Numbered from the stretch's first letter, positions 6,685 through 39,026 are shown. The stretch: 64,000 nucleotides of DNA from Gemmatimonadota bacterium (GCA_022825725.1 JAJDWE010000033.1:87926-151925), one strand, 5' to 3'. Numbers and translations: made by a program. Notes: generated from the letters alone by a model not told the origin.

Positions 6685-6845
6685 CTGTCTCCATCTGCTG
6701 CTGACGGCCGGAATCGAATGCCGATTCACACTACGTGATGTTCGGAGAGGGGTCACGCCCCGATGAGATGCCGCGCACCTGTCGAGGGCGGCGGCGTTCG
6801 TCCGCCGCTGATGCTCCGCCCGCGGGTCGACGCTAGATTGGACAT

Positions 6846-9260
6846 ATGCACCCGCACGAACTGACGCCCGCACAGCGCGCGGCCGCCGAAGATCCGGACC
6901 GGCTTCCGAGGCTCGCCGACGCCGAGTTCACGGCGCTGGGCCGCCGCGCGCGCCGCGTAGAAGGGCTGCGCAAGTCGACCGGCCGCGAGATCTACACGGA
7001 CGACATCGTCCTGCCGGGGATGCTGCACGGGAAGATCCTCCGCTCCACGGAGGCGCACGCCCGGATCGTGTCCATCGACTCGGCCGAAGCCGAGGCCCTC
7101 GAAGGCGTGCACGGCGTCATCACCGGGCGGGATCTGCCGACGCCGTACGGGATCATCCCATGGACCCGCGACGAGCACGCGCTCTGCGTCGACAAGGTGC
7201 GTTTCATCGGCGACGCGGTGGCGGCGGTGGCGGCCGTCGACGAGGACACGGCGAACACGGCGCTCGAGCGGATTCACGTCGAGTACGCGCCGCTTCCCGT
7301 CTATCTCTCGCCGGAGGAATCGCTGACGCCCGAGGCCGCCGCGGAGCCCATCCACGCGCCTCGCAAGCCGGGGGCGAACGGCAACATCCTCAAGCACGTC
7401 CACCTCGAGTTCGGGGACGTGGACGCGCACATGGCGGAAGCGGACGTCACCATCGAGGGGGAGTACTTCTTCCACGGGACGACGCACACGCCGATCGAAC
7501 CCCACTGCGCGATCTCCCGACTCAACCCGGATGGCGTGCTCGAGGTGTGGTCCTCGACGCAGGTTCCGCACTACCTGCAGCGGGAGCTGGCGCGGGTGCT
7601 CGACCACGACGTGGCGAAGGTGCGGGTCGCGCAGCCGGCCGTGGGCGGGGCCTTCGGCGGCAAGTCCGAGCCATTCGATCTCGAGTTCTGCGTCGCGCTC
7701 CTCGCGATGCGGACGGGCCGTCCGGTGAAGATCCTCTACACGCGCGAAGAACTCTTCTACTCGCACCGCGGCCGCCACCCCATGCGCATGAAGTACCGGC
7801 TCGGCGCCTCGCGCGGCGGGAAGCTTCGGGCGCTCGACGCCCACACGATCCTGGACGGCGGCGCCTATGCCTAGTTCGGCCTCGTGACGACGTACTACTC
7901 GGGACAGCTCCTCACCGCGCCCTGCCATATCGAGTCCTACCGTTTCGACTCGACGCGCGTGTACACGAACGTCGCCCCGTGCGGCCCCAAGCGCGGCCAC
8001 GGTTCCGTGCAGCCGCGCTTCGCGTACGAGATCTCGCTCGACAAGCTGGCCGGGAAGCTCGGCCTCGACCCGTTCGAACTCCGTCGCCGCAACTTCATGG
8101 GCACGGGTCGGACGGTAAACGAGTTCAAGGTCCGGTCGAACGGTTTCCTGGAGTGCCTGGAGGCAGTCGAGCGGGCCAGCGACTGGAAGACACGCTACAG
8201 GCGGCTGCCGACAGGTCGCGGCCTCGGGATGGCCGCCTCCTCCTACATCTCCGGCACGAACTACCCCATCTATCCGAACGAGATGCCCCAGGCCGCGGTG
8301 CAGGTGCAGATCGAGCGCTCCGGCCGGGTGGCGATCCTGCACGGCGCCTCGGAGATCGGGCAGGGTTCCGATTCCACCATGGCCTATATCGCGTGCGAGG
8401 AACTCGGCGTCCCGCTCGAATACGTGCGCGTTTTCTCCGCTGACACGGACCTCACGCCGGTGGACCTGGGGGCCTACTCCTCGCGCGAGACCGTGATGGT
8501 GGGAAACGCCTGTCTCGAGGCCTGCCGCGCGCTTCGAGCGCAGGTGACGGAGGCGGTCGGGGAGGTCTGGGGCGTGGCGGCCGGCCGGGTGCGTCTGGCG
8601 CGGGGCTGGGCCTTCGACGTCGAAACCGCGGAGGACTCCGACCGCCGCATCCCTCTCTCGGAGGCGTTCAACATCGCCGAGGCGAAGTTCGGCCTGCTGG
8701 GCGCGGTCGGCTCCTACGACACGCCGAAGGATGTCCACGGCGAGTACCGCGGCGGCACGATCGGATCGTCGCCCGCCTATTCCTTCACGGCGCACGTGGC
8801 CGAAGTCGAGGTCGAAGAGGACACGGGGGTCGTCGACGTGAAGGACATCTGGGTGGCGCACGACTGCGGCCGCGCGCTCAATCCCGTGCTCGTCGAAGGC
8901 CAGATCGAGGGCTCCGCCTACATGGGATTCGCGGAGGCGATCTTCGAGGAACAGCTCTTCCGCGAGGGAGAGGTGGAGGGAGGGCTGCACACGTCGCCGT
9001 CGCTGCTGGACTACCGGATCCCCACTTCCATGGACTGCCCCGAGTTCGAGGCGCTCATCGTCGAGTCGGTGGATCCGGAAGGCCCCTACGGCGCGAAGGA
9101 GGCGGGGGAGGGCCCGCTCCACCCCTCGCTCCCCGCGATCGCGAACGCGATATACGACGCGGTGGGAGTGAGGATCGACGAGCTCCCGTTCACGCCGCAG
9201 CGCGTGTGGAGGACCCTGCGCGCGCACGCCGCCGCCGCGAGCCGCGAGGACGTGGCCTGA
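6846..9260 (+). pseudogene. Xanthine dehydrogenase / aldehyde oxidase / CoxL-family molybdopterin-binding large subunit, interrupted by a single in-frame TAG at 7872..7874.
   Basis: ORFs 6846..7874 and 7884..9260 are in the same frame (both coordinates mod 3 = 0). Together they make one collinear Mo-hydroxylase large subunit: a/b-hammerhead N-domain, then ...ILDGGAYA*FGLVTTYYSGQ..., then the MoCo domains with GSVQPRFAYE, AEVEVEEDTGVVDVKDIWVAHDCGRALNP and EAGEGPL. No adjacent 2Fe-2S or FAD subunits are present. Confidence 0.8.
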
Positions 9261-19746: not shown

Positions 19747-20901
19747 TCAGTCGGCCAGTACTTCCGTCAGCGTATCCGCCACCTCGTCGATCTGTGCTTC
19801 GGTGATCACGAGCGGCGGCAGCAGCCGGATGACCGTGGTGCCGGCCGGGAGGGCGAGGACGCCCCGCTCCGCGAGAGCTCCCAGGTGGGGTCGGCAGCGC
19901 TCGCGGAGTTCGACGCCGATCATGAGGCCCACCTGCCGCACGGCGCGCACGCGAGCCGACTGGCGTCGGGCGAAACGCTCGCTGAAGCGGGCGCCCAGCG
20001 CCTCCGCCCGATCGTCGAGCCGCTCATCCCGCATGAAGCGGATCGCGGCCAGGGCGGCGGCGCTGGCGAGCGGATTGCCGCCGAAGGTCGTGCCGTGCTG
20101 CCCGGGCGGCGGCTGCAGCCGTTCATGCGCCAGGACCGCTCCCAGCGGCACGCCGCCCGCGATCGCCTTCGCGAGGCAGAGCACGTCCGGCGCGACGCCG
20201 TAGCGGTCGCAGGCGAACATGCGGCCGGTGCGGCAGAAGCCCGTCTGGATCTCGTCGAACACGAGGACCGCACCGGCCTCGTCGCAGATGCGGCGCGCCG
20301 CCGACAGATAGTCCTGGCTGGCCGGCCGCACCCCGCCCTCTCCCTGCACCGGTTCGATGATGACCGCCGCCGTGTCCTCGTCCACGGCCGCGCGCAGTTT
20401 CTCGACGTGGTTGAACGGCACGAACGAGAACCCGGGCACGAGGGGCTCGAACGGTTCCCGGTACTGTTTTTTATGCGTCGCGCTCAGCGCACCCAGCGTT
20501 CGCCCGTGGAAGCCGCGCATGGCGGACACGACCCCCGCCCGTCCCGTTGCGAGGCGCGCGAACTTGATCGCCGCCTCCACCGCCTCCGCCCCCGAATTGC
20601 AGAGGAAGGCGCGCGTGAGCCCCGCCGGCGCGATCGAGACGAGTTCGGCCAGCAACCGCGCCCGGACATCGTTGTAGAAGATCCCGGGACAGGACACGAG
20701 GACCCGAGCCTGCTCCGCCAACGCCTCGGCGACGGCCGGGTTGGCGTGGCCGATGCTCGCCACGCCGATGCCGCCGACGCAGTCGATATAGCGGCGACCC
20801 TCGTCGTCCCACACGCACGCGCCCTCGCCCCGCACGACCGCGATGTCGCGCTTCGGGAACACCTCGAGCGCATACTCCCGCTCCGTCTCGCGCGCGTTCA
20901 T
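19747..20901 (-). CDS. argD/lysJ: Class III PLP aminotransferase, acetylornithine / [LysW]-aminoadipate-semialdehyde aminotransferase (ArgD/LysJ).
   Basis: Start MNARETEREYALEVF. Motifs include DCVGGIGVASIGHANP and DEIQTGFCRTG, plus the Lys in CLAKAIAGG. Its 4-bp overlap with the upstream lysZ stop indicates translational coupling. Confidence 0.85.
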   Translation of the reverse strand: MNARETEREYALEVFPKRDIAVVRGEGACVWDDEGRRYIDCVGGIGVASIGHANPAVAEALAEQARVLVSCPGIFYNDVRARLLAELVSIAPAGLTRAFLCNSGAEAVEAAIKFARLATGRAGVVSAMRGFHGRTLGALSATHKKQYREPFEPLVPGFSFVPFNHVEKLRAAVDEDTAAVIIEPVQGEGGVRPASQDYLSAARRICDEAGAVLVFDEIQTGFCRTGRMFACDRYGVAPDVLCLAKAIAGGVPLGAVLAHERLQPPPGQHGTTFGGNPLASAAALAAIRFMRDERLDDRAEALGARFSERFARRQSARVRAVRQVGLMIGVELRERCRPHLGALAERGVLALPAGTTVIRLLPPLVITEAQIDEVADTLTEVLAD

Positions 20902-21710
20902 CCGATGACCGTACCCCGTCCGGCCAGCGCCTCCGTGACCGGATGTTCGACGCACCCGTCCGCGATCACCACGCGCGTCGTGCCGGACTCCGCGACTCGC
21001 CGCAGGGCGAGCAGTTTGCGCTTCATGCGCCCGCGTGCCTCGCTCTCGCGACGCGCCAGCTCCGCGCGCCCGAGCCGTGCGACGACCGACGCCGGATCGT
21101 CAGGGTCCGCCAGGAATCCGGGCGCCTCGATCAGCTGGATCACGCAGTCCGCTCGCAATTCGTCGCTCAGCAGGGTCACGACGTCATCGTTCTCCGAGTT
21201 GATCGCCACGTTGTGCTCGTCGATGAGGGGCACGGTGACCACCGGCGTGAACCCGCCATCGAGGAGCAACGCCAGCAGCTTGCGGTTCACCTCCACCGGT
21301 TTCCCGGACAGGTCCCGTTTGATCAGCGTCTTGCCGCCCTCCCTCACCCGGATGCCCCGGTTGCGGCGACCGCGCACGAGCGCGCCGTCGAGCCCGGTGA
21401 GCCCGACCGCGTTCACGCCCTGGCCCTGCAGCAGTTCCACGATGCGCTTGTTTCGCAGGCCCGCGTAGGCCATGAGCATCACGTCGATCAGGTCGCGGTC
21501 GGAGTGTACACTCTCCTGTCCGGACACGGACGTGAGGATGCGCTTCTCGACCCCGAGCCTCCGAGCCAGCGAATCGCGCAGCGCGTTCGCGCCGTGCACG
21601 ATGACGAACGGACCGGACAAGCCCGCGAGGTCGCGAGCGATCCCCTCGAGATTGATGGATTCTCCGCCGCCGATCTTGACGAGAAGCAGCCCGTCGGATT
21701 CGCCCGGCAT
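20898..21710 (-). CDS. lysZ/argB: Short-form amino acid kinase, [LysW]-aminoadipate / acetylglutamate kinase (LysZ/ArgB).
   Basis: 270 aa. LLLVKIGGGESINLEG...FVIVHGAN...GLTGLDGALV has the AAK-family glycine-rich motifs, and the length is typical of LysZ. Confidence 0.85.
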   Translation of the reverse strand: MPGESDGLLLVKIGGGESINLEGIARDLAGLSGPFVIVHGANALRDSLARRLGVEKRILTSVSGQESVHSDRDLIDVMLMAYAGLRNKRIVELLQGQGVNAVGLTGLDGALVRGRRNRGIRVREGGKTLIKRDLSGKPVEVNRKLLALLLDGGFTPVVTVPLIDEHNVAINSENDDVVTLLSDELRADCVIQLIEAPGFLADPDDPASVVARLGRAELARRESEARGRMKRKLLALRRVAESGTTRVVIADGCVEHPVTEALAGRGTVIG

Positions 21711-21713
21711 CGG

Positions 21714-22370
21714 TCAGAACGTCCCGATGGCGCGGTTGGCCACCGGCGTCCAGGCCCCCCGCCCGTCCGAAGCCGGATAGGGCGCCGAGCACAGAATCCG
21801 CACGCCGTTCCGCCGGGCGGCATGCATCCGGAAGTAGTCCGGGTCCTCGTTGAATCGGGTCGCGAAGTGGACCCGCCGCGACGCGTCGGCGATGATCAGA
21901 TTCATCGCCCGCACGTAACGGGTACGCTTCTCGATCGCATTGAGTCCCCGCTCCAGAGCACGGCCCATGTCTCCATCATCGAAACGCTTGACGAAGTTGA
22001 ACACCTTCTCCGCGCCGATCCGCCCCCGTTCCTTGATCCGCACTCCGTGCAGCTCCCCGTTGAAGATGAACGCGCGTTCCCCGTCGAAGAACGGCATGTT
22101 GTTCTCGATCCGTATCCCCTCTCCGCGATACGCGCTCCTCGCGTGCGCGAGCAGAAGCCTAGTGCGCCCGGGCGGCGCCGCGCCGTCCTCCCACACCGGC
22201 GAGATGTTGCGGTAGACGCGCCACCCGTCGGACCCGTCGGCATCGATCCAGGCGCACCCCCACCCGTCGCCCTGATACTCGGGACTCTCTCGGGCGAGCT
22301 GCGCGAAGGCGGCGAGGTGCGGCTCCATGTCGAAGGGCTCGTCGCTGCGGACGCAGAGGATGCGGCACAC
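21714..22370 (-). CDS. Class II glutamine amidotransferase-like Ntn hydrolase (YafJ/EgtC-like, N-terminal Cys2 nucleophile), embedded in the LysW operon.
   Basis: Begins MCRILCVRS (Met-Cys nucleophile). DGWGCAW, LLLAHARSAYRGEGIRIENNMPFF and FIFNGELHG match the YafJ-type GATase-II pattern. It lies 3 nt from the lysZ start and 25 nt from the lysY stop. Confidence 0.8.
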   Translation of the reverse strand: MCRILCVRSDEPFDMEPHLAAFAQLARESPEYQGDGWGCAWIDADGSDGWRVYRNISPVWEDGAAPPGRTRLLLAHARSAYRGEGIRIENNMPFFDGERAFIFNGELHGVRIKERGRIGAEKVFNFVKRFDDGDMGRALERGLNAIEKRTRYVRAMNLIIADASRRVHFATRFNEDPDYFRMHAARRNGVRILCSAPYPASDGRGAWTPVANRAIGTF

Positions 22371-22395
22371 GAGGATTCAGCTCCGCGTGTCGCGG

Positions 22396-23418
22396 TCAGG
22401 CCGGATGCAGCCCGGGGAACTCGAGGCCCCGCGACTCCGGCAACCCGTGCATCACGTTGAACGCCTGCACCGCCTGTCCCGCCGCTCCCTTCATGAGATT
22501 GTCGATCGCGCTCAGGACGACGACCCGGCTCGAGAGCGGATCGCGCTCGAACCCCACGTCACAGTAGTTCGCGCCCGCCAGGAGGTTGGGGTCGGGATAG
22601 CGGTGGATGCCGCTCCGCTCCTTGACGATGCGTACGAACGGTTCGTCGGCGTACGCGCTCCGATAGATCTTCCACAACGCCTTCTCATCGAGATCCCGGT
22701 TCAGGAATACATGACAGGTGGCGAGGACGCCGCGCACCATTTCAACCGCCGTCGCAGAGAAATGCACGTCGCCGCCGAGCACTGCGGCGATCTCGGCCGC
22801 GTGGCGGTGGCCCGTCGGCCGATACGACCGCATGGCGCCGCTGCGCTCCGGGTGGTGGCTGCCCTCGCTGGCGCGGTTCCCGGCCTCGCTCGATCCCACC
22901 TTCACCTCGATCACGACCGAGTCCGCGACCCCCTCCCGGTACAGCGGCAGAAGCCCGAGGATGGAAGCCGTCGCGTTGCAGCCCGCGCACGCGACGAGAT
23001 CCGCGGCCGCCAGCGCCTCGCGGTTCACCTCCGCGATCCCGTACACGAACGATCCCAGGAGTTCCGGCCGAGGGTGCGGCCGGCCGTAGAAGCGCTCGTA
23101 GTCGGCCCCGTCCTCGAGCCGGAAGTCCGCGCCCAGGTCGACGATCCGCCCCGCCAGAGACCGGAACTCGTCGATGCGGCGGGACGATTCCCCGTGCGGG
23201 AGACAGAGGAAGAGCACGTCGCACTCCGACAGCTCCTCGAGCGCGCTGAAGCGCAGTCGCGTGACGCCGCGCAGGTTGGGATGGACCCGGGGCGCGAACC
23301 GTCCCGCGAAGCGCTCCGATGTGATCTGCCGCACCTCGACGTCGGGATGGCCGAGCAGGAGCCTCAACAGTTCCCCGCCGGCGTAGCCCGAGCCGCCCGC
23401 GATCGACGCGCGGATCAT
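22396..23418 (-). CDS. argC/lysY: N-acetyl-gamma-glutamyl-phosphate / [LysW]-aminoadipyl-phosphate reductase (ArgC/LysY).
   Basis: [21 protein letters not shown] (NAD(P)-binding), active-site Cys in [15 protein letters not shown]-terminal [16 protein letters not shown]. Confidence 0.85.
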
Positions 23419-24263
23419 CGGTCCGCCGCCCGGTCCGGCGAGACGACGTAGGACACGATCCTCTCCGGAATGTTCACGCCGGTCGCCTCGATGCTATTCC
23501 GGAACTCCATCGTGTAGTTCACCTCGTTGACCAGCAGTTCCCCCCCGCTCTCCAGCAGATCCACCGCGACCACGCCCCCGCCCATGGCGGCCGCCGCCCG
23601 CAGGGACAGCTCCGCGATCTCGCTCGTCACCGGACAGTTCGAGGCCGTTCCGCCGCGGGCCGTATTCGTGATCCAGTGCTCGGACGACCGGAAGATGGCC
23701 GCCACGCAGTCGTCTCCGACGACGAACGCGCGGATGTCGCGCCCGCCCTTCTCGACGTACTTCTGCACGAAGAAGATCGAGTGATGATAGCTGCCCAGGA
23801 TCGCCTTGTGTTCGAGGACCGTCTCCGCCGCGTGCCGGTCGTTGATCCTCGACAGCAGGCGGCCCCAGGAGCCGACCGCGGGCTTGAGGACCACGGGATA
23901 ACCGAGTTCCTCAATGGCCTCGAGCGCGGACTCCTCGGTGAACGCGACCCTGGCCTCGGGCTGCGGCACGCCGCATTCCTGGAGCGACGCCGCGGTGAGG
24001 ATCTTGTCTCCGCAGCGGCGCGACACCTCGTAGCGGTTCACGCAATCGAGACCGGCCCCCTCGAAAAGTCGCAACGCGTGCATGGCCCGCGAGTGGTTGA
24101 TGCAGCGCTCGAGAACGACGTCGACGTCCGGGACGTTCCGGAAATCGAACGCGAGTTTGCGGTCGTCCAGAAACACCAGTTCGACGTCGCCGCGCCCGCG
24201 CAACTCCGCGATCAGCAGCTTCTCGTCCTTGCGGATGAGGGAATGAAGAAAGCCGACTCTCAT
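23415..24263 (-). CDS. lysX: RimK-type ATP-grasp ligase LysX/ArgX (ligates substrate to the gamma-carboxyl of the LysW C-terminal Glu).
   Basis: Start [24 protein letters not shown]-grasp motifs ([54 protein letters not shown]). 4-bp ATGA overlaps with lysW upstream and lysY downstream. Confidence 0.85.
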
Positions 24264-24424
24264 TCGCCCCAGTCCTCCTCCGCGTCCGGCGCCTCTCCAA
24301 GGGTGATGGGGTCGAGGGCGAGGATCTCGAGTTCGACGCCGCACTCCTCGCATTCGAGCAACTCACCCTCGACGGGGTCGTCGGAAATCGTCGGTTCCGC
24401 GCCGCATACAGGACATTCCGGCAT
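24260..24424 (-). CDS. lysW: Amino-group carrier protein LysW (54 aa, zinc-finger N-terminus, C-terminal EDWGE).
   Basis: Own translation of the minus strand: [54 protein letters not shown]. It has the CPxCG...CxxCG zinc ribbon and ends in ...EDWGE, the LysW hallmark. It is below the ORF-track size cut-off. GAGG lies about 9 nt upstream of the ATG. Confidence 0.85.
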
Positions 24425-24475: not shown

Positions 24476-25180
24476 TCAGTCCGCCGCCGGGTTCCGGAAA
24501 GGAAGCCGCAGCGCCAGGAAAAGCACGATGGCCACGGGTTCCACGAGCAGAATGTACCACGGCCAGCCCGGGAAGACGTCCAGTATCGATGCGGTCGGCG
24601 GCTTGTCGATGAGATACAGGTAGTTGGACCCGAGTACGCGGTTGATGGGATATACCGCGACGGCGTACACGTTCAGCAGCCCGAGCGCCAGCCATGGATC
24701 GCGCGCCTTCGGCCGGTAGTCCTCCACCGTCACCGCCCACACGCCCGCGATGACGGCGATTCCGTGAGACGCCATCGTCTCGTAGAAGGCGAAATGGAGA
24801 ACGCCGTGGGACGCATCGGGTGTCAGCACGGCCTGAACGGCCCCCGCGACGCCGAAGAAGTACATGAGCCGAAGGGTCCAGAGGTGCCGCGTCCACAGCC
24901 CGTACACCGTCAACCAGGCCATCGCCGCGCACAGGTGCAGCGGGAGGTCGTTCTGCAGGGTCCATAGCCCCACCGAGGCTTTCCACGTGTGCCTGAGGGC
25001 GAGGAGGAGCACGATCGCAGCGCCCATGGCGAAGCGTAGGCGGCGGCGCCGATCCTCGTCGCCAGTCATGCCTGCCCGGATCAGACAGACTCCGATCGCG
25101 ACCAGCACGCCCATCGTCACGAGATGGACCGGACCGAAGAGATCCAGCGGTACCGACTCCGTCCCGAAGAACCCGCCCAT
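24476..25180 (-). CDS. Integral membrane protein (YwaF/TIGR02206-like, unknown function).
   Basis: 234 aa, about 7 TM helices, conserved LPLHLC motif. The function is unknown and the family assignment is tentative. Confidence 0.45.
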   Translation of the reverse strand: MGGFFGTESVPLDLFGPVHLVTMGVLVAIGVCLIRAGMTGDEDRRRRLRFAMGAAIVLLLALRHTWKASVGLWTLQNDLPLHLCAAMAWLTVYGLWTRHLWTLRLMYFFGVAGAVQAVLTPDASHGVLHFAFYETMASHGIAVIAGVWAVTVEDYRPKARDPWLALGLLNVYAVAVYPINRVLGSNYLYLIDKPPTASILDVFPGWPWYILLVEPVAIVLFLALRLPFRNPAAD

Positions 25181-25224
25181 GTCAGGCTGTCATGCTGCGC
25201 GGGCCGGCCGGACGCGCCACGGGT

Positions 25225-27138
25225 TCACGCATCCGCGTCCGCGAGGGAGGAGGTGGGGATCTCCGGACCCTCCACCCGCCGTCCATCCCGCAGCGTCACG
25301 TACGCCTCCATGGCGTAGTAGGCCGGCAGGCCCAGAGCGGCGAGCCGGTTGGCGGTATCCCGGTTTCGTTCGACGACGCGCTGCCAGAATTCGCGCGGAT
25401 CCGGACCGGGGAAGGGAGCCAGATCCTTCTGCGTTTCGTGCCGGAAGATCGCCTGGACCTTGCCGCGCAGTTCGCCTTCGGAGAGCGGCACGAGGACGGT
25501 GGCTTCGTCCAGACTCCACTCCTGCCAGGCGCCGCGGTAGAGCCAGAGCCACGGGGGGTCGCCGCGGTAACCGGCGAGCGCCGCATCCACCGTCTCGAGG
25601 CACATGCGGTGCGTGCCGTGCGGATCGGACAGGTCCCCGGCGGCGAACACGATCGTCGGCCGCACCTGCTCCAGCAGCTGCGCGACGATCTCCACGTCCT
25701 CCGACGTGATCGGGTTCTTCTTCACCGCTCCCGTCTGATAGAACGGCTGGTTCAGAAAGCGGGCGCGGTCGGCGGAGAGCCCCAGCGATTCGATCGCGGC
25801 CGTGGCCTCCGTCTCGCGGATGATCCGCTTGAGTTGTTGAACCACGCCGGGATCGACGTCCCCCGGCTCCTTGCGGGCGAGCCGGTCCTCGAGAGACCGC
25901 AGCAGCTCCCCGAGGCTTGCGGCGTCGCCAAGGTCGATGACGCCGGCCGCGCGCCGCAGGAAGTCCAGGTACCGGCGCACCTCGTGGTCGAAGACGGCGA
26001 TGTTCCCGGACGTCTGATATGCCACGGTGACGTGGTTGCCGTTCTCGACGAGCTTGCGCAGCAGGCCGCCCATCGAGATCACATCGTCGTCCGGGTGGGG
26101 CGAGAAGACGACGATGTTCTGGCCGCGCGGCAGCCGGCTCTTGCCCCGGATCTTGGAGATGAGCGCGTTGAAGACCTGTCCGTTGAGCGGTTCGGCCGAA
26201 CCGTGCCGGGAGGTGAGCGGGGCGAGGTGGTTGGCGCGATAGTCGTCGGTCGCGAGGTGCAGGATCGACTTGTCGATGCGTTCGCTCAGCCAGATGACGG
26301 CCGCGGTCTCGCGCTCCGCCGTCCACTCCACATCGCCCACGAGCCACGGCGTGCGGACGCGGGTGAGATCGGAAGCGGCGGCCGGATCGAGATAGACCGT
26401 CGCGGCGGCGTGTTGCTGCAGAAAGGTCGCGGCGACATCCGCGTGGACCTCCCCCTCGACGGCTCGACGCACGATCCCGGCCTTGTGTTCGCCCGTCGCG
26501 AGCAGCACGACTTCCCGCGCTTCGAGAATCGTGGCCACGCCCATCGTGATCGCCTGCGGCGGCACGTTCTCCTCGCCGAAGAAATCGGACGCGGCATCGC
26601 TCCGGGTGACGGTGTCCAGGTAGAGCCGCCGGGTGCGGGAGTCGCGCTCGGACCCCGGCTCGTTGAAGCCGATGTGACCGCTGCGCCCGATCCCGAGAAT
26701 CTGGAAGTCGATCCCGCCCGCCAGCCGGATTCGGCGCTCGTACTCGACGCAGTGCGCCTCGACCTCCGCTTCCGGCACGTCACCTCGAGGGATGTGGCGG
26801 TGTTCCGCCGGGATGTTCACATGGTCGAACAGGTGCTCCCGCATGTAGCGGTGATAACTGTGCAGGCTGCCGGGCCGCATCGGGAAGTACTCATCGAGGT
26901 TGAAGGCGACCGCGTTGGAGAAGTCGAGTCCTTCGTCCCGATGCAGGCGGATGAGTTCCCGATAGACGCCGACGGGCGTGGCGCCGGTTGCGAGGCCGAG
27001 GACGACGGAGCGCCCGTTCTCCGCCCTCTCTCGCAGGAGCGCCGCGATCCGGCCCGCGACTTCGGCGGCGATGCTGTCGTGGTCCGGCATGATCCGGACG
27101 GGCACACGTTCCCTCCGCGCGTGTGCGGCGACGCTCAT
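25225..27138 (-). CDS. Glucosamine-6-phosphate deaminase (NagB) domain fused to a C-terminal LmbE/PIG-L-like deacetylase domain (long NagB-II type).
   Basis: N-half: LGLATGATPVGVYRELI...FNLDEY...GIGRSGHIGFNEPGS (NagB/6-phosphogluconolactonase fold). C-half: VVFSPHPDDDVISMGG (PIG-L/LmbE zinc-deacetylase motif). The start may be a few codons inside the listed ORF. Confidence 0.75.
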   Translation of the reverse strand: MSVAAHARRERVPVRIMPDHDSIAAEVAGRIAALLRERAENGRSVVLGLATGATPVGVYRELIRLHRDEGLDFSNAVAFNLDEYFPMRPGSLHSYHRYMREHLFDHVNIPAEHRHIPRGDVPEAEVEAHCVEYERRIRLAGGIDFQILGIGRSGHIGFNEPGSERDSRTRRLYLDTVTRSDAASDFFGEENVPPQAITMGVATILEAREVVLLATGEHKAGIVRRAVEGEVHADVAATFLQQHAAATVYLDPAAASDLTRVRTPWLVGDVEWTAERETAAVIWLSERIDKSILHLATDDYRANHLAPLTSRHGSAEPLNGQVFNALISKIRGKSRLPRGQNIVVFSPHPDDDVISMGGLLRKLVENGNHVTVAYQTSGNIAVFDHEVRRYLDFLRRAAGVIDLGDAASLGELLRSLEDRLARKEPGDVDPGVVQQLKRIIRETEATAAIESLGLSADRARFLNQPFYQTGAVKKNPITSEDVEIVAQLLEQVRPTIVFAAGDLSDPHGTHRMCLETVDAALAGYRGDPPWLWLYRGAWQEWSLDEATVLVPLSEGELRGKVQAIFRHETQKDLAPFPGPDPREFWQRVVERNRDTANRLAALGLPAYYAMEAYVTLRDGRRVEGPEIPTSSLADADA

Positions 27139-27141
27139 CGA

Positions 27142-29979
27142 CTAGGGGACCTTCGGCTCCGGTAGCAGCACAAACCGGGCGTACTGGTCGGTGCGGAGGT
27201 AACGGACGGCGGCCTGCCGCACCTGCTCCGCGGTCCAGCTCTCGATCCGCTCGTAGCTCGGTATCCCGTTCAGGTCCCGCCCGGCCCGTTCGAAGGAGGC
27301 CAGCTGCGACAGCCAGTACCGGTTCTCCTGCAGGCTCGTCTCCTTCCCGCGGCGCTGCGTCTCACGGACCTTGTCGACGGTCTCCGCGTCCGGTCCCTCC
27401 GCCTTCAGATTTTCGATCTCCTCGAACACGACGGCGGACAACTCCTCCGCCCGTTCCGGGTCCGAGCCGAAGGAGATGCTGAAGCGATACTCCTCGTCGG
27501 GCCGGTAGCTCAGCGACCCGCTGACGCCGACGCCGTAGGTGCCGCCGAGGTCCTCCCGCAGCACCTCCCGGAGGCGGATGTCCAGGACGTCCGCCATGGC
27601 CGAGATCGCGTTCGACTCCTCCAGCGAGTATTCCGCTTCGCCCGCGAAGATGATCTGCGTGCGGCTCTGCGGCTCCAGACCCTTGTAGACGGTCGTTTCG
27701 ATCGTCCCGGCCGGCGGATCGATCCCGATATCCCGCCAGCTCTCGACACGCCCGAGATTCGGAAGCGCCCCGAGATACTGTTCCACGAGCGGCCGGATCG
27801 CCGCGAGATCAAAGGCTCCCGTGAAGTAGAAGGTGAAGTCGCTCGCGTCCGCGAAACGGTCGAGGTAGACGTCGTACGCCGCGTCGAGGTCGGCCAGCTC
27901 CAGGTACTGCGCAAACTGCGAAAACCTGAGTACCCTCGGGTGCCCCTGCGACATCGTGGCCGAGATCGTGTCGGAAAACACGAAACCGGGATTCGCGCCC
28001 GCATTCGCGAGAAACGCCGTTTGCTGGGCCTTCAGCGCCTCGAACATCGTCTCGTCCCTGCGCGGCGAGGAGAAGTACAGGTAGATGAGTTGGAACGCGG
28101 TTTCCACGTCCTGCGGAGACGCCGATCCACTGACCCCCTCCGAGAGCGAACCGACCGAAGCGGTGACGCGCACCGCCTTGCCGGCCAGCTTCTTCGTCAA
28201 CGCCGTCTGGTCGAATTCGCCGACGCCGGACTGGCTCACGACGCCGAGGGCGAACGACACGCGTCGGTACAGGTCATCGGACAGGATCGACGTGCCGCCG
28301 GGGCTCGTCGCCGAGAAGAGGATCTCGTCGTCCTTGAAGTCCGTGGGCTTGAGGACGACCCGGACGCCGTTCTCGAGGGTCCATATCGTGACCCCCACCT
28401 CGTCGAGGACCTCCTCGCTCGCGACGGGCATGCCATCGGGAGCGACGGGAAGGAGCGGGGCATCGGCCGCCTCGTCCTCGTAGGCCTCGACCTCACGTCC
28501 CCCCACCGCGGCGAACACGCTCAGGAGGTCGTCTTCCGTTGGAGGTTCCAGGCCTTCTTTCGTGGGCGCGCTGGCGAGGACGACGCGTCCCTGCTCGGCC
28601 AGCCACGCCTGGGCGACGCCGTTCGTCTCCTCGAGCGTGATCCCGGGGAGGAAGGCGTCCACCAACTCCATCTGCGTCTCGAGATCGGGATAGGCGCTCC
28701 CCTGGAGAAACACCTGTATGTAGCGGCTCGCGAGCGCGCCGGACTCCTGGTTCTCCCGCTCGGCCAGACGGCGTTCGTATCTCCGCCGGGTGTTCGTCTT
28801 TTCGCGATCCAGCTCGCTCTCGGTGAACCCGTTCTGAACGACGCGCTCGGCCTCGGTGAGGAGCGCTTCGAGCCCGCGCTCGATCCCGCCCTCGGCGACG
28901 ACGGCGACGAGTTGGTAAGCATCCACGCCGCGCGCGAACTGCCCCTGACCCGAAAAACCGACCATGAACGGTGGGTCGGCCTGGAGCCGGAGTTCGTTCA
29001 GCCGCGCGTTCAGCATGCCGGAGTAGAGCCCTTCGACCAGCCCGCGGCGGAAGTCGCCGATGGTGCCGCGAGGGGCGGGCGGCTGCTTGTACAGCACGCC
29101 GACCTGGCTTCCCGGCGCCTCGGGGTCGGTCGCGATCGTGACGAGCGGTGGGTGGTCGATCGGGACTTCGACCGCGATCCGGGGACGCGGCTCCTCGGGC
29201 CCGGTCAGCCCCGCGAACCGCTCGCGGATCATCGCTTCCATATCGGCGCCATCGAAATCGCCGACAGCGACGATCGCCATCAGGTCCGGCCGGTACCAGT
29301 CTTCGTAGAAGCTGCGAAGCCGCTCGACGGGGGCCGTCTCGAGGAGTTCCGGCTTCCCGATCGGGAGTCGTTCCGCGTACAGCGACCCCTGGAACAGGAC
29401 CGGGAACTGCTGATCCTGTATCCGCGCTCCGGCTCCTCGACGGCCGCGCCATTCCTCGATCACAACCCCGCGCTCCTTGTCGACTTCCTCCGGGTCGAAG
29501 AGCACGCCCTGGGCCCAGTCTTCGAGGATCTGGAACGCCGTCGCGAGTGTCTCCGGGTCGTCCATCGGCACCTGGAGCATGTAGACCGTCTCGTCGAAGC
29601 TCGTGTACGCGTTGATATCGGGGCCGAACTGCATCCCGATCGACTCGAGATAGTCGACGAGCGCCTGCTTCTCGAAATTCTCCGTGCCGTTGAACGCCAT
29701 GTGCTCGACGAAGTGCGCGAACCCGAGCTGGTCCTCGTCCTCGAGGATGGAGCCCGCGTTCACGACGAGGCGCAGTTCCGCCCGGTTCTCCGGCTGATCG
29801 TTCTCGTGCACGAAGTAGCGCAGGCCGTTGTCCAGCGTCCCCGTGATGACGGCCGGATCCGGTGGAATCGGATCCGTCGGGGCCGCGGTCTGCGCCGCCG
29901 CTCCGGGAGCGGAGAGCGACGAGAGGAGGATGACGGCGATTGAAACGAAAGCGAAGCCGGACAAGCGGGGGATCTTCAT
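27142..29979 (-). CDS. Secreted M16-family zinc peptidase (pitrilysin/insulinase-like, active and inactive halves fused, 945 aa).
   Basis: Signal peptide MKIPRLSGFAFVSIAVILLSSLSAPGAAAQ. The inverted zincin motif HFVEHMAF (HxxEH) is near the N-terminus, and the second half is duplicated. Confidence 0.85.
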   Translation of the reverse strand: MKIPRLSGFAFVSIAVILLSSLSAPGAAAQTAAPTDPIPPDPAVITGTLDNGLRYFVHENDQPENRAELRLVVNAGSILEDEDQLGFAHFVEHMAFNGTENFEKQALVDYLESIGMQFGPDINAYTSFDETVYMLQVPMDDPETLATAFQILEDWAQGVLFDPEEVDKERGVVIEEWRGRRGAGARIQDQQFPVLFQGSLYAERLPIGKPELLETAPVERLRSFYEDWYRPDLMAIVAVGDFDGADMEAMIRERFAGLTGPEEPRPRIAVEVPIDHPPLVTIATDPEAPGSQVGVLYKQPPAPRGTIGDFRRGLVEGLYSGMLNARLNELRLQADPPFMVGFSGQGQFARGVDAYQLVAVVAEGGIERGLEALLTEAERVVQNGFTESELDREKTNTRRRYERRLAERENQESGALASRYIQVFLQGSAYPDLETQMELVDAFLPGITLEETNGVAQAWLAEQGRVVLASAPTKEGLEPPTEDDLLSVFAAVGGREVEAYEDEAADAPLLPVAPDGMPVASEEVLDEVGVTIWTLENGVRVVLKPTDFKDDEILFSATSPGGTSILSDDLYRRVSFALGVVSQSGVGEFDQTALTKKLAGKAVRVTASVGSLSEGVSGSASPQDVETAFQLIYLYFSSPRRDETMFEALKAQQTAFLANAGANPGFVFSDTISATMSQGHPRVLRFSQFAQYLELADLDAAYDVYLDRFADASDFTFYFTGAFDLAAIRPLVEQYLGALPNLGRVESWRDIGIDPPAGTIETTVYKGLEPQSRTQIIFAGEAEYSLEESNAISAMADVLDIRLREVLREDLGGTYGVGVSGSLSYRPDEEYRFSISFGSDPERAEELSAVVFEEIENLKAEGPDAETVDKVRETQRRGKETSLQENRYWLSQLASFERAGRDLNGIPSYERIESWTAEQVRQAAVRYLRTDQYARFVLLPEPKVP

Positions 29980-34399: not shown

Positions 34400-36033
34400 C
34401 GCATCTCCGGGAAACCGTCCGGGGGACGGCGGTGTCGTGTCGCATGTTCGTATCCGTACGCGAGCCGGAAGAGAAGCCCTTCGTCGTACGGCCGGGCAAG
34501 AATCTGCAGTCCCGCCGGAAGCTCTCCGTAAGTGTACCCCATCGGGACCGTGATCGCGGGCATCCCGGTGGCGGGAGCCACGCGCTGGCTGTTGTCGCCG
34601 CAGTATTCCTCATCCCCCCTGTCGATAGGGGCGGGCACGCAGAGCCACGACGGATAAAGGATCGCGTCCAGGCGTTCGTCATCCATCGCTTCCACGAGGC
34701 TCGCCAGGTACGCCTGGCGGCCCTCGTTCTCCGCGTAGTCCGGGCACGGCTCGTCCCACTCGGACGGATGTACGTCGAGCGGGGCTCCCTCGTTCCGCCG
34801 CAACGACGCCTGCGCGTAGTCGGAGTATCGTCCGTCCTCCAGCACCTCCAGGACATCCGTCATCGGCGCCGCCGGGCCCAGCGACCGCAGATAGACCCAC
34901 ATGTCGTAGCGGAAGCGGCGGCAGAACATCCCCTCCCGCCCCAGCTCCGCCGCGACGTCGAACTCGAAGGGGTCCACGATCTCGGCTCCCAGCGCCGCGA
35001 AGTCGACGAGGGCCGCTTCGAAGAGCGCGAGAATCTCCCCATCGGTCTCCTCCGGATCCGCCAGCGCGCGCAGGACGCCGATCCTCGCGCCCCGCGCCCC
35101 GTCGGCGTCCAGGAAGGCCGTGTAGTCCTCCTCCGCGCGGCCGCGTCCCGCTTCCGTGTACGGATCTGCGGAATCGTACCCGGCCACGACATTGAAAACG
35201 CGCGCGACGTCCTCCACGGTCCGGCCCATCGGGCCCGCGATATCGCGGTCGAAGGAGAGGGGGATGACGCCATCGCGGCTCGTGAGGCCGATCGTCGAAC
35301 GGATCCCGACCAGGGCGAGGTGGGAGCTGGGTCCGCGGATCGAGTTGCCCGTGTCGCTGCCCAGCCCGATGACGCCGAACGAGGCGGCGACCCCGGAGGC
35401 CGTTCCCCCGCTGGACCCGGCCGGGACGCGGTCGAGGGCGTAGGCGTTGCGCGTCGTGTCGAAGGAGGAACTGACGGACTGACGCGGACTGAACGCCCAT
35501 TCCGCCATGTTGGTCTTGGCGATCACGATCGCGTCCGCCTCGCGGATCTTCCGCACCATGAAGGCGTCGTCGGGCGGAAGGTTCTCCGCGAGCGCGATGG
35601 ACCCTCCCGTCGTGACCATGTCGTGCGTGTCGAAGTTGTCCTTGACGAGCATCGGGACACAGAAGAGCGGTCCCATCGTCTCGCCGGCGGCCTGCGCCGC
35701 GTCGAGCCGATCCGCGCGTTCGAGAGCCCGGGGGTTGAGCACGGTGATCGCGTTGATCGCGTCTTCGTAGGCCGCGACCCGGTCGAGATGCCGCTGCACG
35801 ACCGCGCGGCAGGTCGTCGTCCCGTCGCGGATCGCCGCCTGCACGTCGCCGATCGTCGCCTCCACAACCTCGAAGACCGAGTCGGCGTCGGCGCGGGGTT
35901 GGGGAGTGCACGCAACCCACCCCATCCCGAGCGCAGCGGACAGTAAGGCCGGGATTGAGCGGTGCTTCCGCTGGACACCGTTGACGGTCCACAGACGGCA
36001 AGGTGTCCCGGGTGCGTTGCTCCTCGGTCGCAT
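34396..36033 (-). CDS. Amidase-signature family amidase (secreted).
   Basis: GGSSGGTASGVAASFGVIGLGSDTGNSIRGPSS is the AS-family Gly/Ser-rich signature, with Ser-cisSer-Lys. The start is uncertain (ATG at 36033 or GTG at 36057). It overlaps the TonB receptor start by 4 bp. Confidence 0.8.
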   Translation of the reverse strand: MRPRSNAPGTPCRLWTVNGVQRKHRSIPALLSAALGMGWVACTPQPRADADSVFEVVEATIGDVQAAIRDGTTTCRAVVQRHLDRVAAYEDAINAITVLNPRALERADRLDAAQAAGETMGPLFCVPMLVKDNFDTHDMVTTGGSIALAENLPPDDAFMVRKIREADAIVIAKTNMAEWAFSPRQSVSSSFDTTRNAYALDRVPAGSSGGTASGVAASFGVIGLGSDTGNSIRGPSSHLALVGIRSTIGLTSRDGVIPLSFDRDIAGPMGRTVEDVARVFNVVAGYDSADPYTEAGRGRAEEDYTAFLDADGARGARIGVLRALADPEETDGEILALFEAALVDFAALGAEIVDPFEFDVAAELGREGMFCRRFRYDMWVYLRSLGPAAPMTDVLEVLEDGRYSDYAQASLRRNEGAPLDVHPSEWDEPCPDYAENEGRQAYLASLVEAMDDERLDAILYPSWLCVPAPIDRGDEEYCGDNSQRVAPATGMPAITVPMGYTYGELPAGLQILARPYDEGLLFRLAYGYEHATRHRRPPDGFPEMR

Positions 36034-36093
36034 ACAACTAAACTTGCCAAATCGCACCGATATGCCAAGCGCCGGAACCGCGAGGTGTCGCCG

Positions 36094-37302
36094 ATGAAGC
36101 GGAGAATCGAGACCGCCCTCTTCACCCGTCGAGATTTTGTTCGTGCCGCCAGCGCGGGACCCGCCGCGGCCTGGCTCGCCGCCTGCGGCCGCGCGGAAGA
36201 CGCGGGGTCATCGACGGACGCCGAAGCCGCCATCGCCTCCCGCGGGGAGCGGCCGCCCCGGTGGGCGAAGGATCCAGCGCCCTTCATCCAGCGCACCCTG
36301 AATCTCGAAACGCGGCTCGAACTCGTCGACGGGTTCATCACGCCGAACGAGCTGTTCTTCGTCCGAAACCATTCGCCCACGCCGGCGATCGATCCGGAGG
36401 GCTACTCGCTTCGCGTGGAGGGGGACGGCGCCGAGACCGAACTGCGGCTCGACCTGTCCACCCTCGAGTCGCTGCCGCAGCACACGATCACCGCTTACCT
36501 GGAGTGCGCCGGCAACTGGCGGGGTCTGTATCCGGAACTCACCGGCACCCGCGCGAGCGGCGGCCAGTGGACGACCGGAGCCGTGGGGTGCGCGGAGTGG
36601 TCGGGGCCGTCGCTCGCCACGGTGCTCGACCTGGCCGGCGTGCGGCCGGAAACGGTCGATGTGAATCTCGTGGGGCTGGACAGCACCGGATTCGAGCGCG
36701 CCATGCCGCTCGCGAAGGCGCGGGATCCCGACACCATCATCGCGCTGCGCATGAACGGCGAGCCGCTTCCCGCGGATCACGGGTTCCCGGCGCGATCCGT
36801 CGTTCCCGGATGGTCGGGGTCCAGCAGCATCAAGTGGCTGGGGTCCATCCAGCTCTCCACCGAGCAGGTGTGGAACGCGAACAACACGTCGTCCTACGTC
36901 CTCATCGGCGACGAGTGGCCGGCGGAGGAGCATGCGCCCGCGCAGGGGGCGGTGATCACGGAACTCGTCGTGAAGAGTGCGCTGGCCCTTCCGAGGCCTG
37001 CGCAACTGGCTCCGGGATCCCATGTCCTCCACGGGTTCGCGCACGCGCCGGCGGGACCGGTATCCGCCGTCGAATGGAGTCCGGATGGCGGAACGACGTG
37101 GATGGAGGCAGAGATCGTGGATCCGATTCTGCCCCTCGCGTGGCAACGCTTCGAGTTCGAGTGGGACGCGACCCCGGGGGCGCACACGCTGGCCACCCGA
37201 GCCACGGACGCGGCGGGGAATACGCAGCCGGACGAGCCTCTGATGAACGAAAAGGGCTACCTGCTGAACGTCCCGCTCCCGCACCCCGTGCAGGTGGAGT
37301 GA
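36094..37302 (+). CDS. Sulfite-oxidase-family molybdopterin oxidoreductase (Tat-exported, SorA/SO-like with dimerisation domain).
   Basis: Tat motif RRDFVRAASAG. Mo-domain blocks (FFVRNHSPTPAID, ITAYLECAGNWRG with the Mo-ligand Cys, HGFPARSVVPGWSGSSSIKWL), followed by an Ig-like C-terminal domain. Confidence 0.8.
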   Translation: MKRRIETALFTRRDFVRAASAGPAAAWLAACGRAEDAGSSTDAEAAIASRGERPPRWAKDPAPFIQRTLNLETRLELVDGFITPNELFFVRNHSPTPAIDPEGYSLRVEGDGAETELRLDLSTLESLPQHTITAYLECAGNWRGLYPELTGTRASGGQWTTGAVGCAEWSGPSLATVLDLAGVRPETVDVNLVGLDSTGFERAMPLAKARDPDTIIALRMNGEPLPADHGFPARSVVPGWSGSSSIKWLGSIQLSTEQVWNANNTSSYVLIGDEWPAEEHAPAQGAVITELVVKSALALPRPAQLAPGSHVLHGFAHAPAGPVSAVEWSPDGGTTWMEAEIVDPILPLAWQRFEFEWDATPGAHTLATRATDAAGNTQPDEPLMNEKGYLLNVPLPHPVQVE

Positions 37303-37338
37303 AGCGGCCCCGGACGCGCTGACGGAGCCCGAATCGCC

Positions 37339-37719
37339 GTGCTGTACCGGTTGCTCGCGGACCTCGTCCTCATCGTCCACCTGCTCTTCATCGCGTTCGT
37401 CGTCGCCGGCGGGTTCGCGGCGATCCGGTGGCCGAGGCTCGCCTGGGCGCACGTGCCCTGTTTCGTGTGGGGGGCGCTGATCGAGTTCGCCGGCTGGATC
37501 TGCCCGCTCACGCCGCTGGAGGTCAGGCTCCGGATCGCGAGCGGTCAGGCCGGTTACTCCGGCGGCTTCATCGAGCGCTACCTGCTGCCGGTCATCTATC
37601 CCGGCGCGCTCAACCGGGAGATCCAGATCTGGCTCGGGCTGTCCGTGTTGGCGCTCAACGCCGTGGCGTACGCCTGGCTTCTGCGCCGACTACGCCGGCA
37701 CGCCCGAAGCGTTCGCTGA
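37339..37719 (+). CDS. DUF2784 family small membrane protein.
   Basis: MLYRLLADLVLIVHLLFIAFVVAGGF...CPLTPLE matches the DUF2784 N-terminal consensus. It has 3-4 TM helices. Confidence 0.6.
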   Translation: MLYRLLADLVLIVHLLFIAFVVAGGFAAIRWPRLAWAHVPCFVWGALIEFAGWICPLTPLEVRLRIASGQAGYSGGFIERYLLPVIYPGALNREIQIWLGLSVLALNAVAYAWLLRRLRRHARSVR

Positions 37720-38918: not shown

Positions 38919-39026
38919 GTCAGACCTCGCCTCCGGTGGATCGCGTGGCTCGTCGTCTTCTCCCGCCCACGCTCAAGCTCGGGTCCGATCACGCGTCGGA
39001 GCAAGACGTCATCGCAACGGCGCCTC

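Follow-up and report, generated by a model that had tools for sequence, protein, structure and literature searches.

Which enzyme frees the finished amino acid from its carrier protein in a LysW operon that lacks lysK? The question is raised by six genes in a 64,000-nt stretch of DNA from a Gemmatimonadota bacterium (GCA_022825725.1, JAJDWE010000033.1:87926-151925), hereafter called the window. These genes most likely encode the LysW carrier branch of lysine biosynthesis through alpha-aminoadipate (AAA), of the Thermus type, in which LysX would attach the amino acid substrate to LysW through the gamma-carboxyl of its C-terminal Glu54. Between lysY and lysZ, the operon carries a gene for a stand-alone N-terminal nucleophile (Ntn) hydrolase with the fold of class II glutamine amidotransferases (GATases), and a first-pass annotation of the window had proposed that this protein takes the place of LysK. 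Our results support that proposal through the linkage of the Ntn gene to LysW clusters, its exclusion of LysK at the level of the cluster, the nucleophile Cys2, the pattern of active-site residues and the occurrence of LysW proteins ending in glutamine. The Ntn enzyme is probably a non-orthologous replacement for LysK, unrelated to that M20 metallohydrolase.

Organization of the LysW operon

Open reading frame (ORF) calls and the sequence place the six genes at positions 19747-24424 of the window, in the order lysW-lysX-lysY-Ntn-lysZ-lysJ:

lysW, 24260-24424, minus strand: amino-group carrier protein, 54 aa, with an ATG start and a GAGGA ribosome-binding site upstream
lysX, 23415-24263, minus strand: ATP-grasp ligase (TIGR02144, PF22626, PF08443), overlapping lysW by 4 bp
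lysY/argC, 22396-23418, minus strand: [LysW]-aminoadipyl-phosphate reductase (TIGR01850), overlapping lysX by 4 bp
Ntn gene, 21714-22370, minus strand: stand-alone class-II-GATase-fold Ntn hydrolase, 218 aa, a proposed [LysW]-gamma-L-lysine hydrolase and LysW-Gln deamidase
lysZ/argB, 20898-21710, minus strand: [LysW]-aminoadipate kinase (NF010659), starting 3 bp past the Ntn stop codon
lysJ/argD, 19747-20901, minus strand: [LysW]-aminoadipate-semialdehyde transaminase, 384 aa from an ATG at 20901, overlapping lysZ by 4 bp

The genes had been described as chained by 4-bp overlaps or by gaps of at most 25 bp, and the coordinates given for them proved exact to the base. The overlaps lie at lysW/lysX, lysX/lysY and lysZ/lysJ, with a 25-bp gap between lysY and the Ntn gene and a 3-bp gap between the Ntn gene and lysZ.

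Distribution of the Ntn gene and of LysK

Relatives of the Ntn protein were sought in a scan with one genome per species, which found 129, and the best 80 of these were examined for genomic context. They belong to Gemmatimonadota, Acidobacteriota (Vicinamibacteria), Gammaproteobacteria, Calditrichota, Deltaproteobacteria and Zixibacteria, the gammaproteobacterial carriers being Acidiferrobacteraceae, SUP05 Thioglobus, Arenicellales and Poriferihabitaceae, and Ectothiorhodospiraceae. Of 79 loci among these best 80, 74 have lysY immediately upstream of the Ntn gene and 77 have lysZ immediately downstream. The gene order of the window is found again in 72 of 79 species-level genome loci spanning several phyla, so the arrangement is not due to chance. 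Clustering of all ORFs from the 80 loci revealed no further neighbours conserved across phyla beyond the six genes. Two divergent members show other arrangements, lysW-HCS-lysX-lysY-lysZ-lysJ-Ntn (P0197, 31% identity; HCS, homocitrate synthase) and lysZ-lysJ-Ntn-lysW-lysX-lysY (P0261, 28% identity); in both, the Ntn gene overlaps the end of lysJ, which is the place of LysK in many canonical clusters. Co-occurrence within lysW clusters, which the first-pass annotation had named as a check on its proposal, is thus found across phyla and in three gene orders, down to 28% identity.

The family is a small one, with 3094 proteins after clustering at 90% and 374 clusters at 50% identity, and neither NCBIfam release 20 nor Pfam holds a model for it. 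The first-pass annotation had also considered that this gene order might prove common and its Ntn gene already annotated as a glutamine amidotransferase with another defined role. The gene order is indeed common, but every named database member of the family is a 'hypothetical protein'. A tblastn search of PLSDB plasmids returned no match to the Ntn protein. Three apparent fusions of the Ntn protein to LysY or LysZ (P0159, P0241 and P0209), which would have served as Rosetta-stone evidence, were rejected as frameshift or read-through artefacts.

The first-pass annotation had reported LysK/ArgE as missing from the window, and this was borne out, as phmmer and tblastn searches of the 64 kb, run with ArgE of E. 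coli and LysK of Deinococcus, and Pfam scans of the other ORFs all failed to find an M20 or LysK gene. A Pfam scan of a 97%-identical contig (L081) found no M20 domain either. By the same two queries, no Ntn-type locus had a LysK within 10 kb; the only M20 protein near such loci, 9 kb from L062, is not LysK, as its 65.9 bits fall far short of the LysK cut-off (363). A plasmid of Deinococcus sp. NW-56 carries the order HCS-hacA-hacB-lysW-lysX-lysY-lysZ-lysJ-lysK, with nothing between lysY and lysZ, no Ntn gene, and a LysK that scores 420 bits against the curated cut-off of 363. A metagenome sample selected by LysX (n = 80) yielded 23 loci with LysK, two with Ntn and none with both, while 55, mostly short contigs, had neither. 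We then counted as complete only those clusters in which lysX, lysY, lysZ and lysJ were present with at least 1.2 kb on each side (n = 68). Results showed Ntn only in 59, LysK only in eight, both in none and neither in one (Fisher's test, P = 1.2e-9, a value that is not corrected for phylogeny and overstates the independence of the loci).

Fold and active site of the Ntn protein

The Ntn protein scored 22.1 bits against Pfam GATase_4, under the cut-off of 23, and 47.5 bits against the EgtC model TIGR03442, far under its cut-off of 218.65. An AlphaFold2 model built with 54 homologues (pLDDT 86.8, pTM 0.88) consists of a single domain, and its best match among solved structures in Foldseek was EgtC (E = 2e-12, TM-score 0.71), followed by the glutaminase domains of GlmS and PurF and the uncharacterised 3MDN. 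The matches to EgtC, GlmS and PurF at probability 1.00 support the four-layer alpha-beta-beta-alpha Ntn fold. By sequence, the best match in the PDB was 3MDN (2e-7, HMMER), and hhalign of the family profile against E. coli YafJ gave a full-length alignment (92.8%, E = 4e-7). The earlier description of a YafJ/EgtC-type Ntn hydrolase therefore stands, with EgtC as the closest fold, YafJ as a full-length profile alignment and scores below the family cut-offs.

These similarities, weak as they are to GATase_4, EgtC and YafJ alike, would also be expected of a housekeeping amidohydrolase of the YafJ/EgtC type that merely happens to lie in the operon. We regard this explanation as highly improbable, because the protein falls under every family threshold, no egt genes occur within 10 kb, and its linkage to lysW is kept in three gene orders across phyla.

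A Cys codon directly follows the start codon in 78 of 79 Ntn genome loci. In the window, the GTG start, with GGAG 10 nt upstream, is followed by TGC (Cys2), and the protein begins MCRILC. Many public gene models of the family (P0007, P0013, P0029, P0277-P0285 and others) are only 198-204 aa long, because the start codon was placed too far into the gene, past the true GTG or ATG, and they thus lack the catalytic Cys2. Such late start calls may help to explain why the family has been overlooked.

The key residues of the Ntn protein are C2, R78, N104-G105, G119 at the canonical Asp position, and E121-K122. In a MAFFT alignment with GlmS, C2 corresponds to C1, H76-x-R78 to HTR73 and N104-G105 to N98-G99; the nucleophile context of Cys2, singled out by the first-pass annotation as decisive, is thus sound. 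R78 and N104-G105 are invariant across the family. The Asp of the GlmS motif ETDTE (D123; D127 in PurF) and of the YafJ motif ETDSEK corresponds to an invariant Gly (GRIG119AEK), which is kept even in members of 28-31% identity; this mapping rests on sequence alignment and a predicted helix at 120-128, not on superposition, and the link to GlmS was made through YafJ (hhalign), MAFFT and Foldseek.

In structures of GlmS and PurF, the Arg binds the alpha-carboxylate of glutamine and the Asp its free alpha-amino group. Since the carboxylate site is kept and the amino site lost, the substrate expected is a glutamyl residue with a free carboxylate and a peptide-bonded amino group. As judged from the aligned residues, this pattern would fit the C-terminal Glu54 of LysW, as expected of an enzyme acting on that carrier. 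With a pI of 9.0 (family median 8.9), the Ntn protein is basic, and LysW, with a pI of 4.05, is acidic. Very probably, the Ntn enzyme acts on the gamma-carbonyl of the C-terminal residue of LysW.

No synthase (acceptor) domain was found, either fused to the Ntn protein, which is a single domain of 218 aa, or partnered with it, its neighbours being LysY and LysZ. Because there is no second domain, the protein should be a hydrolase and not an amidotransferase. The alternative offered by the first-pass annotation, that the protein aminates a pathway intermediate, is not favoured for the same reason, and LysJ already supplies the amino group.

The linkage and the active-site pattern would equally suit a proofreading or recycling hydrolase that strips wrong or stalled cargo, such as LysW-gamma-Glu, from the carrier instead of releasing the product. 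Enzymes of the LysX family and those downstream of it are promiscuous between AAA and glutamate (PMC12998189). However, a release enzyme would still be required and none is linked to these clusters; editing enzymes are also seldom retained so universally, and one would not be expected to exclude LysK. We therefore consider a purely proofreading role improbable.

LysW proteins ending in glutamine

The carrier encoded in the window has a zinc ribbon (CPVC...CEEC), 18 Asp or Glu residues and no Lys or Arg (pI 4.05), and ends in EEDWGE. It scored 57.6 bits against TIGR01206 (cut-off 53.2) and also matched PF21344. When the LysW proteins of Ntn-type loci were compared (n = 74), 62 were found to end in EDWGE and 12 in EDWGQ followed directly by the stop codon. 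None of 69 LysW proteins from LysK-type or unassigned clusters ended in Gln (Fisher's test against the Ntn-type loci, P = 3e-4). Both Gln codons, CAG and CAA, are used, in quite different LysW sequences from Arenicellales, other Gammaproteobacteria and one member of Calditrichota. A profile was needed to find more, as a search with a single LysW sequence gave only seven candidates; the profile search recovered 98 database clusters of Gln-ended LysW, including those of a Caldithrix abyssi metagenome-assembled genome and a KSB1 genome. The association was then tested as a prediction in six further Gln-type loci on long contigs. The Ntn gene was present between lysY and lysZ in all six (E = 1e-64 to 1e-76, with an M/V-C-R-L-L start) and LysK in none.

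One further carrier end was observed in a pair of near-identical contigs, in which LysW ends EEDWG-TGA in one (L088:4951-5124) and EEDWGE in the other (L087:8753-8929). The difference lies within a run of G, and the shorter form is probably a homopolymer length error, not a carrier without the terminal Glu.

In ArgW, the substitution E54A abolishes carrier function, the gamma-carboxyl of the terminal Glu being the attachment point (PMC10433800). Since the terminal Glu is required, a LysW ending in Gln would need prior deamidation, which is the native chemistry of the Ntn fold. On the simplest reading, the Ntn enzyme hydrolyses any amide on the gamma-carbonyl of the last LysW residue, freeing lysine in each cycle and ammonia a single time from a Gln-ended carrier, and a Gln end would be tolerable only in lineages in which this enzyme has replaced LysK. 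That the Ntn enzyme is also a LysW-Gln deamidase we put at about an even chance. The combined reading, a dual-role gamma-glutamyl amidase of protein C-termini that both releases lysine and activates a LysW-Gln pro-form encoded by lysW genes ending in CAG or CAA, is likewise evenly balanced in our estimation.

The same observations invite the explanation that the Ntn enzyme only matures the carrier, from LysW-Gln to LysW-Glu, and that lysine is released by a LysK encoded elsewhere. Indeed, Gln-ended LysW occurs only with the Ntn gene, the ancestral reaction of this fold is the hydrolysis of glutamine, LysK can be unlinked, and long clusters with neither gene exist. Yet 62 of the 74 LysW proteins in Ntn-type loci already end in Glu, and the Ntn gene is retained nonetheless, at 50-97% identity across phyla; moreover, no complete cluster has both Ntn and LysK, which would be unexpected of enzymes with two different jobs. 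Because most Ntn-type clusters, including that of the window, already encode Glu, maturation is not the main job of the enzyme, and maturation alone is an unlikely account of it.

Cargo of the carrier protein

In nine Ntn-type loci of several lineages (L054, L057, L065, L068, L076, L085, L173, L174 and L178), an HCS-like gene lies between lysW and lysX; the best equivalog for these genes is homocitrate synthase, with scores below the cut-off. Genes for homocitrate synthase, homoaconitase and homoisocitrate dehydrogenase are absent from the 64-kb window. Its LysZ scored 238.9 bits against the model '[LysW]-aminoadipate kinase' (NF010659; cut-off 223), and its LysX contains a 10-residue stretch with an Asn-Thr pair, as reported for AAA-specific LysX of Sulfolobus (PMC10433800), although the placement of this motif is putative. 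Together, the HCS-like genes, the LysZ kinase model and the Asn-Thr pair of LysX favour the route from aminoadipate to lysine, and we infer that lysine, not ornithine, is the product.

Other cargo has nevertheless to be weighed, as the cluster might make ornithine and arginine or a non-canonical amino acid, with the Ntn enzyme releasing that product or donating ammonia as a glutaminase. LysW systems are bifunctional or arginine-specific in some cases (PMC10433800, PMC12998189), and a study of Gemmatimonadota assigned the LysW genes, from KEGG modules, to the LysW-glutamate route to ornithine (PMC11651109). In one locus, a second LysX paralogue (L068:3500-4483; TIGR02144, 322 bits) lies between lysY and the Ntn gene, which may also speak for such a product. 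Against this stand the HCS-like gene inside the cluster in several phyla, a LysZ that passes the aminoadipate-kinase model and the Asn-Thr pair tentatively placed in LysX. The amination version is further opposed by the size of the Ntn protein, which at 218 aa leaves no acceptor domain, and by the presence of LysJ. Overall, we consider a product other than lysine quite unlikely.

A second lysX was also seen upstream of HCS in several LysK-type metagenome clusters (L105, L121, L131, L155 and L169). By analogy, second LysX copies recall the LysX/ArgX pair of Sulfolobus, a hint that some clusters might serve both lysine and arginine.

Proposed mechanism and comparison with known enzymes

If the Ntn enzyme replaces LysK, Met1 would first be removed, and the free thiol of the resulting Cys1 would attack the gamma-carbonyl of the C-terminal residue of LysW. 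Arg78 would hold the free alpha-carboxylate of that residue, Asn104-Gly105 would form the oxyanion hole, and Gly119, in place of the canonical Asp, would leave space for the peptide bond between Gly53 and Glu54 of LysW. The departing amine would be L-lysine in every catalytic cycle, or ammonia in the case of a nascent Gln-ended LysW. Hydrolysis of the LysW-thioester would then regenerate LysW-Glu54 for LysX.

LysK (NF003367; PDB 5XOY) carries out the reaction proposed here, as it hydrolyses the gamma-glutamyl isopeptide by which the alpha-amino group of lysine is joined to LysW Glu54. It occurs in the same type of operon, in some cases within the run of lys genes and in others past lysJ. However, the two enzymes are not homologous, LysK being a di-metal M20 enzyme of ~360 aa and the Ntn protein a metal-independent cysteine hydrolase of 218 aa. 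The latter would also proceed through an acyl-enzyme intermediate, the LysW-thioester, and could accept the amide of LysW-Gln, which is not expected of LysK.

EgtC (PDB 4ZFJ, 4ZFK and 4ZFL), the best structural match, shares the stand-alone class-II-GATase fold and the Cys1 nucleophile. In the ergothioneine pathway, it removes a gamma-glutamyl group, cleaving an amide rather than transferring ammonia (PMC9103826). It differs in sequence (~22% identity), in that no egtA, egtB, egtD or egtE genes lie near the Ntn gene, and in its substrate, since the Ntn enzyme would act on the C-terminus of a protein, where the alpha-amino group is blocked. The Asp for the alpha-amino group that is Gly in the Ntn protein is that of YafJ and GlmS. 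YafJ and SPO2029 (3MDN), uncharacterised stand-alone class II GATase-like proteins of Pfam GATase_4, resemble the Ntn protein in the full-length profile alignment of the former and in the rank of the latter as best PDB match. Compared with YafJ, however, the Ntn protein is ~40 residues shorter, has GRIGAEK in place of ETDSEK and lies in a different genomic context. The glutaminase domains of GlmS and PurF have the Cys1, Arg and Asn-Gly framework in common with it, but the Ntn protein has neither synthase domain nor ammonia channel and has lost the Asp that binds the alpha-amino group.

Several observations weigh against replacement of LysK by the Ntn enzyme. With regard to the active site, the HMMER alignment to 3MDN puts the Gly119 stretch in a different register, and direct hhalign of the Ntn family to GlmS failed (probability 0.2%). 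With regard to the exclusion of LysK, 75 of 82 LysY proteins from Ntn-type loci form one clade, so the counts are not phylogenetically independent; the two locus sets compared were drawn with different queries; and several long metagenome clusters have neither gene. In Thermus, moreover, lysK is not linked to the cluster. An enzyme that cleaves gamma-amides of LysW would also have to spare LysW-gamma-AAA, a discrimination that we infer along with its substrate. Finally, one member of 29% identity with Cys2 and the Gly motif (P0264) sits away from lysW genes. Its loci (L089:1331-1990 and L090:2414-3073) have methyltransferases and an NAD-salvage cluster (NrtR, NAPRTase and NAD synthase) beside it. 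Its genome may hold the lys cluster elsewhere, or this branch may act on another substrate; we take it to mark the edge of the Ntn family.

Other gene models and features of the window

LysX scored 330.8 bits against TIGR02144 (cut-off 275.6) and LysY/ArgC 376.3 bits against TIGR01850 (cut-off 233.6). For LysJ, the best NCBIfam match was Thermus LysJ (LysJ_Th_th), whose cut-off of 700 was not reached (480.5 bits), and the argD subfamily model TIGR00707 was passed at 439.8 bits (cut-off 410). The gene model of 384 aa is the same in contig L081. The window matches a Candidatus Palauibacter chromosome (Gemmatimonadota) at ~96-98% protein identity.

An Rfam scan of the whole window found neither a lysine riboswitch nor any other Rfam family, and no promoter or terminator signal between 19300 and 25400 exceeded those of shuffled sequence. 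The start of lysW is separated by 52 nt from an upstream gene for a TMEM164-like membrane protein, which is itself preceded on the same strand by genes for a glucosamine-6-phosphate isomerase/PIG-L fusion and an M16 peptidase (24476-29979, minus strand). With no promoter or terminator signal between lysW and these upstream genes, the transcription unit may be longer than six genes.

The remainder of the 64 kb encodes transporters, peptidases, amidohydrolases and molybdoenzymes, and Pfam scans of its ORFs found no other lysine or arginine genes. A molybdenum hydroxylase gene of the xanthine-dehydrogenase/aldehyde-oxidase type (6837-9260, plus strand) is split by an in-frame TAG (7872-7874) into two ORFs that share one reading frame, the first matching MoCoBD_1 positions 6-169 and the second 174-244. 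Decay into a pseudogene, an error of sequencing or recoding of the stop could each account for the split. Two divergently placed sulfite-oxidase-like genes with Oxidored_molyb and Mo-co_dimer domains (35959-37302, plus strand; 37758-38972, minus strand) flank a DUF2784 gene (37303-37719).

Significance

Full-text searches for literature linking LysW with glutamine amidotransferase, Ntn, EgtC, YafJ or EDWGQ returned nothing relevant, and the GapMind 2026 gap-filling preprint makes no mention of the Ntn enzyme. The genome paper on Caldithrix abyssi describes 'LysWXZYJ and Hcs' in an eight-gene locus, naming neither LysK nor an extra gene. The case would combine a known pathway with a last enzyme of non-orthologous origin and add a new functional family to the Ntn superfamily.

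If this reading is true, it would clearly exemplify non-orthologous displacement, a cysteine Ntn hydrolase having taken the place of a metallohydrolase, and the new family would recognise a protein rather than a small gamma-glutamyl compound. It would also explain how lysW genes can end in a Gln codon despite the essential terminal Glu, and the Gln-ended LysW would provide the first case of an amino-group carrier that is synthesized in a pro-form and activated by the enzyme that also releases its cargo. Cleavage of gamma-glutamyl isopeptides at protein C-termini is a possible use of the enzyme as a tool.

For the organisms themselves, the Ntn enzyme would supply the missing final step of lysine synthesis in six or more bacterial phyla, among whose carriers are abundant marine and sponge-associated groups (Palauibacterales, Arenicellales, SUP05 relatives, Vicinamibacteria and Calditrichota). 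Lysine is among the commonest putative auxotrophies in a study of Palauibacterales, which are marine Gemmatimonadota, and part of such auxotrophy calls may be an annotation gap (PMC10469786). If the Ntn enzyme completes the lysine pathway, both these calls and the assignment of the LysW genes to ornithine may need revisiting (PMC10469786, PMC11651109).

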